Virus record (IMG/VR): IMGVR_UViG_2684622582_000002
Span: 1-33,594 of that record
Length of the DNA stretch: 33,594 bases
Origin: a virus
Taxonomy: Duplodnaviria > Heunggongvirae > Uroviricota > Caudoviricetes
Direction: 5' to 3' (one strand)
Part shown: piece by piece, positions 10,927 to 28,408 of the stretch
How positions within the stretch are numbered: position 1 is the first letter of the stretch
How the letters are laid out: the number at the start of each line of letters is the position of its first letter
Position numbers and translations under genes: made by a program
The notes under the pieces: model-generated
What the model saw: the letters and a program-made list of their open reading frames with translations, nothing else
Databases searched by the model: none
What the model was told of the DNA's origin: nothing

Positions 10927-11386
10927 TCAACGTAAGGCGTTCCTCGATATGCTGGCGTGGTCAGAGGGAACTGATAACGGACGGCAGAAAACCAGAAATC
11001 ATGGTTATGACGTCATTGTTGGCGGAGAGCTATTCACTGATTACTCCGATCACCCTCGCAAACTTGTCACGCTAAACCCAAAACTCAAATCAACAGCAGC
11101 CGGGCGCTATCAGCTTCTTTCCCGTTGGTGGGATGCCTATCGTAAGCAGCTTGGTCTGAAAGACTTCTCTCCCAAAAGTCAGGACGCTGTGGCATTGCAG
11201 CAGATTAAAGAGCGTGGCGCTTTACCGATGATTGACCGCGGTGATATCCGTCAGGCTATCGACCGTTGCAGCAATATCTGGGCTTCACTGCCGGGCGCTG
11301 GTTATGGCCAGTTCGAGCATGAGGCTGACAACCTGATTGCAAAATTCAAAGAGGCTGGCGGAACGGTCAGAGAGATTGAGGTATGA
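10910..11386 (+). CDS. R: Endolysin R (lytic transglycosylase), 158 aa
   Basis: Protein [35 protein letters not shown]... matches remembered lambda R. Confidence 0.95.
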
Positions 11387-11820
11387 GCAGAGTGACCGCG
11401 ATTATCTCCGCTCTGGTTATCTGCATCATCGTCTGCCTGTCATGGGCTGTTAATCATTACCGTGATAACGCAATCGCCTACAAAGACCAGCGGGATAAAG
11501 CCACAACCATCATCGCTGATATGCAGAAGCGTCAACGTGACGTAGCAGAACTCGACGCCAGATACACAAAGGAGCTTGCTGATGCTAACGCGACTATCGA
11601 AAGTCTCCGTGCTGATGTTTCTGCTGGTCGTAAGCGCCTGCAAGTCGCCGCCACCTGTGCAAAGTCAACGACCGGAGCCAGCAGCATGGGCGATGGAGAA
11701 AGCCCAAGACTTACAGCAGATGCTGAACTCAATTATTACCGTCTCCGAAGTGGAATAGACAGGATAACCGCGCAGGTTAACTACCTGCAGGAGTACATCA
11801 GGACTCAGTGCCTGAAATAA
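11383..11820 (+). CDS. Rz: Rz i-spanin (145 aa)
   Basis: N-terminus [31 protein letters not shown] matches lambda Rz, followed by coiled-coil-like sequence; diverges from lambda after about residue 30. Confidence 0.85.
11576..11758 (+). CDS. Rz1: Rz1 o-spanin lipoprotein embedded in Rz (+1 frame), 60 aa
   Basis: ORF nested in Rz with lipobox LVVSAC and Pro-rich mature region. Confidence 0.7.
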
Positions 11821-11851
11821 TTTTTTTGCAAATCACAAAGTCCATTTAATG

Positions 11852-11876
11852 AGCCTCGCGATGCGGGGCTTTTTTA
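11852..11876 (+). terminator. Intrinsic terminator after lysis cassette
   Basis: Hairpin AGCCTCGC-GAT-GCGGGGCT (one G-U wobble) followed by TTTTTT. Confidence 0.5.
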
Positions 11877-12022
11877 TGTCCGCAGTAAACGCGCTTCACA
11901 CGCGCGACTTATGAACACAGAACCTTTCAGGATGACCCTTGAGGATGCCGGTTTGGTGATCGGTACCTTTCTGTGGGCCGGAATCCTGTGTGACAAGGTT
12001 CATCACTAAAAGGTAATTACTG

Positions 12023-12553
12023 ATGAAGTACCCAACAGTTATTGTCAATGGTGTGTCCGTTCGTGTTGATGAGGATGGACGCTACAACTTAAACGATCTC
12101 CATGCAGCAGCAGTTGCAAATGGAGAGGCTACAGAGCAACAGCGCCCAAGCCAGTTTTTGCGTAGCGCGCAGATAAAACGCTTCATCAAAGCACTGGAGG
12201 CCAAAGTGCAAAAAAGCACTTTGGAACAAATTCAACCACTTAAAATAATCAAAGGTGGTGCAGAACCAGGTGTGTGGGGTGTTGAACTTCTGGCAATCAG
12301 ATATGCAGCATGGATTAAGCCGGAATTTGAAATCGAAGTTTATGAAGTTTTCAAAACGGTTGTCCGTCTCGGCGTTGGCGCAATGTCCCGTCTGAATAGA
12401 ATCGATCACATCATCAATACTGAAACCAAAGCGATAAGCCAGTGCGCAAGACAAATGGCTAAGTGGGGTGTTGGTGGGCGAAAAAGATTGCTTCATGTTG
12501 CACGTGAGAGAGCGGCAAATGAAGTGCAAATGTATTTGCCCGGGATGGTGTGA
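12023..12553 (+). CDS. KilA-N domain-like protein (176 aa)
   Basis: N-terminal pattern (VNGVSVRVDEDGRYNLNDLH ... WGVELLAIRYAAWIKPEFEIEVYEVF) resembles KilA-N/APSES-type domains; assignment from memory. Confidence 0.5.
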   Translation: MKYPTVIVNGVSVRVDEDGRYNLNDLHAAAVANGEATEQQRPSQFLRSAQIKRFIKALEAKVQKSTLEQIQPLKIIKGGAEPGVWGVELLAIRYAAWIKPEFEIEVYEVFKTVVRLGVGAMSRLNRIDHIINTETKAISQCARQMAKWGVGGRKRLLHVARERAANEVQMYLPGMV

Positions 12554-12658: not shown

Positions 12659-12865
12659 ATGATGGACAATTATTTTAAATCTGGCGATAACCGAGTATCT
12701 GATTCTGAGCACCAGCGTTTAGTGGCTACCAAAGCAGCTCTTGAAATTATCAAGGCCGCCGTATCTGCCCCTACCCATGCGAAAAACGTGTCTTATGATT
12801 TGGAGGAGGCAATAAAATATCTTCCACGGTTGACTGATGCTATTCAGGAAACGATTGGCAAATAG
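12659..12865 (+). CDS. Hypothetical small protein (68 aa)
   Basis: ORF followed by a hairpin plus T-run (12918..12941); no family recognised. Confidence 0.4.
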   Translation: MMDNYFKSGDNRVSDSEHQRLVATKAALEIIKAAVSAPTHAKNVSYDLEEAIKYLPRLTDAIQETIGK

Positions 12866-12917
12866 CATTTGATTTTAGTTTTATTATCTCACCTTAAATA
12901 TGAGTGAGATTAATACA

Positions 12918-12941
12918 AAGCTACCTACGAGTAGCTTTTTA
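12918..12941 (+). terminator. Intrinsic terminator
   Basis: Hairpin AGCTAC-CTACGA-GTAGCT followed by TTTTT. Confidence 0.45.
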
Positions 12942-13261
12942 ATGGCTTATACCTTACACGGGATAACTTAACTGATATCCCCACAAGCGGATAAAGAGAT
13001 TCTCAATGTCCAACATCTACCAAATCACGTTAACCACCCAAACAGGCGAAACCGTTACGAGCAAGACGTCACGATTTCAGCATGAGTTGGTTAACGGCTT
13101 TGTGCCGCTTGTGATCGAGACGGGAGAGTGATTGTATTTCTCTCCCGACAATGTGAAGCGCATACAGTTCACGCCAGAATTGAATGATGAAGCGTGATAA
13201 GTGGCTATTTTGTGGTATAGGTTTATGCGCTAAAACAATCAATTAGCTCAGTCAATGATCT

Positions 13262-13786
13262 CTATTGTCCTGCAACTTGTTTAGTGAGTCTTAGGATGAT
13301 GCTGCCAAGAATAGCTATGAATTTTTCACGATTATTGGCATCTGGACGGTTAAGATTCAGCTCAATGTCTCCAACTTTTATGCCGAATCTTGCTGAGTTA
13401 ATGAGATCTTCCTGACCACCTCGGCTAATAAATGTTCGTAATGATTCAATTTCTGCGTCAGTTATTTCCGGGTTGTCTATTTGATGAGAGCGAACATTTC
13501 TTATTCTATTTAGGCGTTTAAGTTCTGCGACGGAGTGTTCATTTAGGCCGAGGTTGGCAGCTAGCTGAATTTTTGCGGCATAGGTCATGGTTAAGTTTTC
13601 ACCAAATCCATCAAATAGATTTTGGTTACCTACAGCGGCGCAACAAAATGCCTCAATCATTGCTTCTGTAATCAGATGTACTCTTAAAACCAAACCAATA
13701 TCATCTTCAGTATTTACTAACCTTTCAATTCGTTGCCAAGTTGCTTCGTTCATTATGAACTTTGATTCAAAAATTTCAGGATTCAT
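13262..13786 (-). CDS. Reverse-oriented cargo gene; alpha-helical protein with R-x4-H (HEPN-like) motif, 174 aa
   Basis: Only long ORF on either strand in 12866..13813; AAGG RBS upstream of ATG at 13786; motif RIRNVRSH; opposite orientation to the late operon. Family assignment is inference. Confidence 0.6.
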   Translation of the reverse strand: MNPEIFESKFIMNEATWQRIERLVNTEDDIGLVLRVHLITEAMIEAFCCAAVGNQNLFDGFGENLTMTYAAKIQLAANLGLNEHSVAELKRLNRIRNVRSHQIDNPEITDAEIESLRTFISRGGQEDLINSARFGIKVGDIELNLNRPDANNREKFIAILGSIILRLTKQVAGQ

Positions 13787-13813
13787 TTATTTACCTTATC
13801 AGCAGGGGAAAAT

Positions 13814-14341
13814 ATGGCGCTCACTGACAAACAAGAAATGTTCTGTCGCGAGTACCTCATCGATTTAAACGCCACGCAAGCGGCTATTCGGGCGGGGTAC
13901 AGCGCAAAAACAGCCAACCGTACTGCGTCCGAAAACATGTCAAAACCTGACATACAACTCAGAATCTCCGAATTGAAAGCACAACGCAATGACTCTGTTG
14001 GAATAAATGCAGAATATGTACTTAATCGCCTTATTGAAATCGACCAGATGGATGTGCTCGACATTCTCCTGCAAAACGGTGAGTTAAAGCCCATTAAAGA
14101 CTGGCCTAAGGTATGGCGCACAACGTTATCAGGAATGGATGTTGTGGAGATGGTATCCGCAGATAGTGCAGCACTCCTGAAGAAAATCAAATGGCCTGAT
14201 AAGGTTAAAAACCTCGAACTTCTTGGTAAGCATGTTTCTGTTCAGGCGTTTAAAGAACAAGCTTCTCACGAACTAACAGGCAAAGACGGCGGCGCAATCC
14301 AGATTGAAACATCACCGATGAGCACTCTATTCGGAAAATGA
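13814..14341 (+). CDS. Terminase small subunit (P22 gp3-like), 175 aa
   Basis: First gene of packaging module, good RBS (AGGGGAAAAT-ATG), stop overlaps terL start; N-terminus MALTDKQEMFCREYLIDLNATQAAIRAGY typical of small terminases. Confidence 0.8.
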   Translation: MALTDKQEMFCREYLIDLNATQAAIRAGYSAKTANRTASENMSKPDIQLRISELKAQRNDSVGINAEYVLNRLIEIDQMDVLDILLQNGELKPIKDWPKVWRTTLSGMDVVEMVSADSAALLKKIKWPDKVKNLELLGKHVSVQAFKEQASHELTGKDGGAIQIETSPMSTLFGK

Positions 14342-27788: not shown

Positions 27789-28274
27789 TTATCTGATGTT
27801 ACTGCTACTGTTGCATGTTACCGTGTTTCCAAATCCTGAATTGCAGTTTGTATATGTGTCAACGCGTGTTGGGTAAGGTTGAGTTATAACAGGCTGGCGC
27901 GCTTTTTGCTCGATCGCTTGCATTGTGTTTACAGCCTGATAATTCAATAAAGCCTGCTGGAATGCTTGGCTTTGCGCTATTTGTTTGGCTTGTTCTTGGC
28001 TTTGTAATTGAACATAAAGATTCTGAAGCTCAAGTCTTGCCTGTGCGTCACTTATCTTGCCTTCATCGACACCTTGCCCGAGCATCTTCGCAGCAAGGAC
28101 ATACAGCTTAGGTGTTGGTGCTGATGCCATGCGTGAGTCGTTCTTCACGCTAGCATCAAGGCAATTAGCCATATCGCTAAGCTTTGGATAGCGTTGTTCG
28201 CAATTTGCCTGATAGTCGCTAACCTTTGCACACCCTGCAAGCAGAAGCGGGATAATTAACAGTGATTTTTTCAT
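27789..28274 (-). CDS. Lipoprotein (cargo; possible superinfection-exclusion or surface function), 161 aa
   Basis: Signal peptide with lipobox MKKSLLIIPLLLAGC, GGAGAG RBS; Gln-rich helical middle, Cys-containing C-terminus; sits where P22 carries sieA. Start moved to the RBS-proximal ATG. Confidence 0.7.
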   Translation of the reverse strand: MKKSLLIIPLLLAGCAKVSDYQANCEQRYPKLSDMANCLDASVKNDSRMASAPTPKLYVLAAKMLGQGVDEGKISDAQARLELQNLYVQLQSQEQAKQIAQSQAFQQALLNYQAVNTMQAIEQKARQPVITQPYPTRVDTYTNCNSGFGNTVTCNSSSNIR

Positions 28275-28408
28275 ATGATTAACTCTCCTTATCTTTGCCA
28301 TCATGGCACTGTTGGGTGTAAATGAGTTATTAACTCAATCGACAATATCTTCACGAAAATACTTTTTATTATTAAGATCTTTCTGATTCTAACAAAACGG
28401 AAAGTAAT

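Follow-up and report, generated by a model that had tools for sequence, protein, structure and literature searches.

The window analysed here is a whole stretch of 33,594 nucleotides (nt), IMG/VR record IMGVR_UViG_2684622582_000002, which corresponds to a P22-like E. coli prophage. Our subject is a gene for a stand-alone HEPN-domain protein (13262..13786, minus strand; ATG start, 174 amino acids, aa) located at the junction between the lysis and terminase genes. The preliminary description of this DNA had reported it as a reverse open reading frame (ORF) and the only substantial coding sequence within 12866..13813, and it is present as described; the sole exception among long ORFs in that interval is a small, interrupted ORF on the plus strand (13006..13197). 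The neighbouring terS gene, coding for the small terminase subunit, is the first packaging gene (13814..14341, plus strand; Terminase_2 type, from the annotation and from PF03592 on the homologous neighbour). The two genes are divergent and, in agreement with the distance given earlier, their starts are separated by 27 bp. As read from the sequence, each gene has its ribosome-binding site in this intergenic region (13787..13813): AAGG on the minus strand for the HEPN gene and GGGGA on the plus strand for terS. Overlapping ORFs in other frames, at 13587..13868 (plus strand) and 13783..14190 (minus strand), were without support.

The protein is identical to WP_001067622.1, named "hypothetical protein" in RefSeq, and it matched PHROG 5483 with an E-value of 1.7e-50. 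A set of 5.8 billion proteins contained 16 full-length homologues, down to 41% identity, and an exhaustive HMMER profile search retrieved 367 clusters at E<=1e-3, nearly all of them stand-alone proteins of 150-230 aa. Full-length homologues occurred in phages of Escherichia, Enterobacter, Citrobacter, Pantoea, and Salmonella. The ratio of nonsynonymous to synonymous substitution rates (dN/dS, Nei-Gojobori method) was 0.10 against an 88%-identical copy and 0.04-0.06 in other pairs. Thus, considering the PHROG match, the full-length homologues, and a dN/dS of about 0.1, ORF 13262..13786 is not a chance ORF but a genuine gene that evolves under purifying selection. Its guanine plus cytosine (GC) content is 37-40%, compared to 45-55% in the flanking late genes.

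The HEPN catalytic motif, read from the sequence, is R-N-x3-H (R96-N97-V-R-S-H101; codons at 13484..13501, minus strand), and it lies within RIRNVRSH (residues 94-101). We used two alignments, one with 14 close relatives (A1) and one with 139 divergent relatives (A2, mean column identity of 13%). In A1, the invariant residues were the block N93..R96-N97-x-R99-S-H101-Q-I-D-N105 and E41, whereas in A2 the only invariant residues were E41, R96, N97, and H101. The RNxxxH pattern was found in 158 of the 166 retrieved proteins. E41 (codon at 13664..13666, minus strand) is acidic and lies in the first core helix, a long one (residues 29-52), as located by both alignments and the helix assignment of an AlphaFold2 model. 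According to the general pattern of HEPN families, it would take part in the active site. The same model, together with the sequence, placed R-N-x3-H at the end of helix 83-101. Within the close family, conservation reached 73-77% for core residues 27-113 and only 43-46% for residues 1-26 and 134-151, which fits these being variable sensor regions. The weak Pfam matches among the relatives were all to HEPN families (RiboL-PSP, Cthe_2314, DUF4145, Abi_2, Apea, MAE_28990, MtlR, HepT, and Csm6); a HepT-like Pfam match, also weak, was found in one of the 139.

The preliminary description had read a HEPN RNase signature (R-x4-6-H) in RIRNVRSH and had suspected a HEPN-like protein, and both proposals gained support. 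The AlphaFold2 monomer model, built on the 14-sequence alignment, was confident, with a predicted local distance difference test (pLDDT) of 89.9 and a predicted template modelling score (pTM) of 0.86. It presented helices at residues 3-11, 14-24, 29-52, 69-78, 83-101, and 110-129, followed by a beta-hairpin at 135-144 and a last helix at 152-173, with the all-alpha HEPN fold (four-helix up-down core). When we searched with this model, the top four Foldseek matches were the chains of HepS (STM14_3211), encoded in the Salmonella Typhimurium prophage Gifsy-1 (PDB 9OIJ/9OIK; Sargen et al., Nature 2026, PMC13043305); a search of viral folds in BFVD displayed no significant match. As for the motif, R96-N97-x3-H101 is invariant in the family and aligned with R100 and H105 of HepS, both validated by mutation. 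Structure prediction followed by a Foldseek search was a check named in the preliminary description, and its outcome favours HEPN. We are almost certain that the protein adopts a HEPN fold and that its catalytic motif is intact.

Profile searches pointed to the same relative. The A1 profile retrieved HepS from all PDB sequences (E 2e-4), with H101 aligned on the residue changed in the HepS H105A structure. The A2 profile retrieved it with E 1.8e-17 and 66.9 bits over HepS residues 26-138 of 194; it was the sole significant match, and the next one was Csm6 (E 0.04). Moreover, hhalign of A1 against a HepS fragment reached 86% probability (E 5e-6), direct BLASTP aligned 60 aa surrounding the motif at 32% identity, and a bridging relative (P0124) matched HepS on its own at E 4.8e-12. 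A tblastn search for HepS itself in the phage genome collection gave no match, and HepS residues 21-193 were therefore reconstructed from HMMER alignments. We regard true homology between the 174-aa protein and HepS as highly probable.

The residues that matter for HepS function have counterparts here. In HepS, R100 and H105 are catalytic, and a model has N101 in contact with the anticodon. Trigger binding is signalled to H105 through I107, and the tetramer depends on L83; activity requires R100, H105, I107, and L83 (PMC13043305). Using the numbering of that paper (PDB chain numbering minus 2), R100 corresponds to R96, N101 to N97, H105 to H101, I107 to I103, L83 to L79, and K76 to K72. R96, N97, H101, I103, and L79, the counterparts of the catalytic, relay, and interface residues, were all invariant in A1.

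To describe the surroundings of the gene, we gathered 49 contexts, consisting of Enterobacter, Citrobacter, Pantoea, and metagenomic prophages, Salmonella phage FSL SP-016, phage phi80, and 40 IMG/VR loci, all 40 on viral contigs. In all 49, the HEPN gene had the lysis cassette on one side and the packaging genes on the other, and its strand was opposite to that of these two groups. This position held across different modules: Terminase_2 with a PBSX-type TerL, Terminase_2 with Mu-F/portal_3, DUF1441 with GpA, and HNH with TerL. No conserved partner gene was found across the contexts, the neighbours varying between loci, and none of them was a conserved antitoxin-like gene, which is in line with the single-gene function suggested at first. 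The one small ORF that recurred among the neighbours belongs to phrog_6581 and is convergent with the HEPN gene. The protein is thus stand-alone, with less than 250 aa, a single domain, and no conserved partner or inhibitor gene.

Two arrangements were observed. In the first one, which includes the window and loci L005, L009, L012, and L014, the gene is divergent from terS at 22-59 bp. In the second one (L026-L046, L001, L007, and L013), the divergent neighbour, at about 75 bp, is a 110-aa ORF followed by an N15-gp59-like gene, and a conserved motif, CTCTGTATACTGG(T/A)(G/A)TAGAG, is found about 55-75 nt upstream of the HEPN ATG. Within an imperfect inverted repeat, the CTCTGTATACTGG motif holds a TG plus a -10-like TATACT element; from these features it looks like a promoter plus operator. 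L047 and L048 harbor TGTATAAT at a similar place upstream of the HEPN gene. No equivalent of the CTCTGTATACTGG motif was present in the terS-adjacent subgroup, window included; here, a HEPN promoter inside the 5' end of terS, as first deduced, or abutting it is a reasonable expectation.

An informative comparison at this position came from a sister prophage, that of E. coli strain T28R. By blastn, its similarity to the window was 96.6% up to 12947 and 92.8% from exactly the terS ATG (13814). Between the same breakpoints, T28R has an unrelated reverse ORF of 182 aa (phrog_30882; L004 2944..3492, minus strand), and thus the 866 bp at 12948..13813 are, on this comparison, a variable cargo cassette in a real hotspot at the lysis-terminase junction. 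The junction had been pointed out beforehand as a cargo hotspot of lambdoid phages, and T28R bears this out. We considered whether the 182-aa ORF could be a divergent HEPN homologue, and comparison ruled it out; it had no Pfam or meaningful PADLOC match. As a side observation, the slot upstream of terS is a swap site for antisense cargo, and the phrog_30882 gene is another uncharacterised candidate.

With these results, we consider that the gene is probably a moron of the P22-like prophage coding for a HepS-type, stand-alone HEPN ribonuclease, which most likely serves as a single-gene anti-phage defence. The moron features are the low GC content, the cassette breakpoints with alternative cargo in T28R, and the antisense orientation in every context. 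Taken separately, an anti-phage or abortive-infection role is fairly probable, by analogy with HepS, and tRNA as the target is a tentative proposal with the same basis. HepS is an inactive tetramer that is activated allosterically and cleaves tRNA anticodon loops, leading to abortive infection (PMC13043305). Following that model, the HEPN gene would be transcribed constitutively from its own promoter in the lysogen, and the protein would be held in an inactive oligomer with the HEPN active sites closed. A protein of an infecting phage might then bind to it directly and open the composite R/H active sites. The activated enzyme would cut RNA, most likely at tRNA anticodon loops, so that translation would halt and the infection would abort before the release of progeny.

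Several points weigh against this reading. Activity, toxicity, defence, oligomer, trigger, and target are all carried over, by analogy, from a relative with 18-21% identity. The trigger-contact residues of HepS –S13, D15, S202, and T203 (PMC13043305)– fall outside the aligned region. After HepS, the second-best structural matches were MtlR and YggD, which are non-catalytic HEPN-fold regulators. No Pfam, NCBIfam, or PADLOC model recognises the 174-aa protein, the nearest match being DUF6548 (14.7 bits vs. a cut-off of 27.3). Expression in the lysogen is assumed, since a promoter and terminator scan retrieved no sigma-70-like site upstream of the HEPN gene and no intrinsic terminator; a relaxed promoter scan of the upstream regions of nine loci gave nothing convincing for the terS-adjacent subgroup. 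Finally, the gene is rare: among 5426 complete E. coli genomes, it was found in just two (SW4848 and EC931), and little can be learnt from its distribution for that reason.

An alternative that we regard as unlikely is a HEPN RNase working for the carrier's own cycle, either through superinfection exclusion without suicide, through breakdown or processing of host or phage RNA in lytic growth, or, by virtue of its antisense position beside terS, through control over the late or packaging genes. The antisense position beside terS and the packaging genes, kept in 49/49 contexts across head modules, is tighter than expected of freely moving cargo. In several loci, moreover, the gene and terS are collinear and have co-diverged, as in L012, which is 81% identical from 13006 to 14250. 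However, close prophage relatives such as T28R share terS (92.8% identity) but fill the slot with an unrelated gene, and the HEPN gene is therefore dispensable for packaging. The closest characterised homologue is an abortive-infection protein, and low GC content with antisense orientation is typical of lysogen-expressed morons.

A toxin of a toxin-antitoxin or addiction module, with a small RNA or the convergent ORF at 13006..13197 as the antitoxin, seems quite improbable. That ORF is a small late-strand ORF of phrog_6581 (E 3e-30), with 56% identity to an intact 68-aa ORF of L005, and it is interrupted in the window by an in-frame TGA (13129..13131) that replaces a conserved Trp codon (TGG in L005 and L012). 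IMG/VR loci L018 and L019 share this TGA, and L020, L012, and L005 have an intact ORF. In the relatives the ORF has 63-68 aa, and in the window the 21 codons beyond the stop are still conserved. The TGA is a nonsense mutation of recent origin or else a site of read-through. Such a stop next to an intact HEPN gene, as in the window, L018, and L019, would not be tolerated in an antitoxin that the cell needs. Besides, 15 phage genomes without the HEPN gene have phrog_6581, where it is usually the final gene ahead of cos, and the large subgroup with the 110-aa flanking ORF lacks it. We thus rejected it as an antitoxin or partner and regard it as a backbone gene of the slot. For a small RNA, no Rfam family reached threshold over the region; a sub-threshold asX2 match at 11851..11929 (26.5 vs. 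70 bits) was taken as chance. Neither an MNT gene nor any other conserved neighbour is present, and HepS is non-toxic without its trigger.

A catalytically inactive HEPN-fold regulator or adaptor, like MtlR and YggD, is very improbable, because R-N-x3-H and the glutamate of helix 1 are invariant in the 139 divergent relatives despite so low a mean column identity, as expected of a conserved active site, and because the profile matched HepS and then Csm6, not MtlR, among the solved structures. For a functionless reading, be it a chance ORF or a remnant in decay, only the lack of database annotation speaks, and the dN/dS of 0.04-0.10, the full-length homologues, and the confident structure model refute it.

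Regarding the carrier, the counterpart of the prophage in SW4848 is integrated between ybhC and ybhB. The order and sizes of the late genes are the same in the window and in SW4848: terS, PBSX-type TerL, portal, scaffold, P22 coat, gp4, gp10, ejection proteins, Arc, and tailspike. Judging from these genes, the carrier is a podovirus without a lambda-J-type tail tip. In the EC931 prophage (L003), the HEPN ORF is 100% identical despite heavy decay: IS1 and IS5 insertions, partial excisionase and holin genes, a shortened TerL, and loss of the genes from portal to tail. Its retention in such a degraded prophage fits a host-protective role, although the evidence is circumstantial. Upstream of the cassette lie Rz (11383..11820), an ORF of 176 aa with a KilA-N domain (12023..12553, plus strand), and the 68-aa phrog_5901 ORF (12659..12865, plus strand); the last two are common to T28R and outside the swapped segment. 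No tRNA genes were found in the window.

Other possible cargo was also observed. A second reverse ORF of 171 aa (27789..28304, minus strand) is placed between the ejection-protein genes and Arc/tailspike and is possibly another moron; its equivalent in EC931 and SW4848 is WP_001519614.1, a "hypothetical protein". Among HEPN-carrying relatives, likely cargo near the head genes included a Rap1a-family ORF (PF18602; L012 228..575, plus strand) and a Tlde1-domain ORF (PF10908; L009 and L010, 1..460, minus strand).

When compared to known systems, the nearest one is HepS, an abortive-infection HEPN tRNA nuclease that works solo and is non-toxic without its trigger (PMC13043305). Both are single-domain, partner-less HEPN proteins of about 170-210 aa encoded on temperate lambdoid prophages, and they share a layout of helical core, beta-hairpin-like insert, and C-terminal helix after a conserved N-R. 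In fact, the family profile aligned with HepS beyond the core, over the beta-rich insert and the final helix with its preceding N-R. The differences are also clear. In structural alignment, the identity is 18-21% (27-32% in the core), and HepS has about 210 aa vs. 174 aa here. The C-terminal tail of HepS (about 19 residues) has no counterpart, as the protein, with the conserved N-R as alignment anchor, ends some three residues short of HepS chain residue 193, and the N-terminus is about seven residues shorter and predicted helical. In HepS, the trigger is the lambda J tail-tip protein, and the N- and C-terminal tails form a composite beta-sheet with a J peptide (PMC13043305). The alignment and the predicted model displayed no trigger-binding tails of this type, which bears on the mode of sensing and not on homology. 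We infer that the protein has its catalytic machinery and allosteric relay in common with HepS and differs in the sensing surface. Since the C-terminal trigger-binding tail is absent, the trigger probably differs too. HepS responds to a siphovirus J tail tip, whereas the carrier here is a podovirus without one, and a lambda-J-type tail tip as the trigger is doubtful at best.

Other HEPN systems are further away. None of the models for Abi_2/AbiD-AbiF, RiboL-PSP, DUF4145, Csm6/Csx1, RnlA/LsoA, or HEPN-MNT toxins was matched by this ORF, and neither Abi_2 (AbiD/AbiF) nor the other Pfam HEPN families scored above the gathering threshold. Unlike other HEPN defence RNases, it is not associated with a CARF, MNT, Dmd-type, or other partner, either as a domain or as a gene, and no adjacent MNT antitoxin gene was found in the window or in any related locus examined. 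As is established for HEPN families, the HEPN-fold regulators MtlR and YggD lack the catalytic R-x4-6-H; in the family described here, that motif is invariant.

PHROG 5483, of which no member has a described function, includes two further phage proteins: phi80 gp52 (YP_007947985.1) and SP016_00215 of Salmonella phage FSL SP-016. Their genes occupy the same position in antisense orientation, with the lysis genes on one side and cos or the terminase on the other. A megablast search of phage genomes with the cassette gave no match, and tblastn retrieved only FSL SP-016 and phi80, with 59% and 30% identity to our protein, respectively. The phi80 gp52 gene (L002 1172..1786; 204 aa) was the best-scoring PHROG 5483 member among those scanned (E 5.6e-81). 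The family is also carried by siphoviruses such as phi80. Lysogens of phi80/Lula are reported to block T4 completely and to cut the P1 yield tenfold, an exclusion to which no gene was assigned (PMC2885432), and the retrieved papers naming both phi80 and HEPN contained no discussion of gp52. We propose gp52 as a candidate for this long-noted exclusion, as a lead and not as evidence.

The antisense placement could itself have a meaning. In an extension of the HepS-like reading that we consider rather improbable, PHROG 5483 proteins would be abortive nucleases with another trigger, and their orientation would be a self-immunity device. On induction, Q-antiterminated late transcription would run head-on through the HEPN gene and its terS-embedded promoter, and transcriptional interference or antisense RNA would shut the gene off, so that the prophage's own burst would be spared while the lysogen stays armed. 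A block of T4 and P1 by phi80 lysogens would fit a trigger other than that of HepS, as neither is a siphovirus. Gifsy-1 handles self-targeting by varying its tail tip (PMC13043305); if the extension were true, gene order would encode a second answer to the same problem.

Our results give a probable function to the unannotated PHROG 5483, which the Pfam, NCBIfam, and defence-finder models tried here do not see, and would extend the HepS type to E. coli P22-like and other enterobacterial prophages. The antisense slot by terS gives a simple rule for finding more cargo and a testable idea on how prophages spare themselves, and the differences in the HepS sensing regions make the family well suited to studying the evolution of trigger specificity around a constant HEPN core. 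Regarding novelty, the protein is not of a new kind: it belongs, as part of a separate subfamily, to the kind that HepS represents, whose first characterisation dates from January 2026. What is new here is the link of PHROG 5483 and phi80 gp52 to HepS, the absence of the sensor tail, and the strictly conserved antisense slot.
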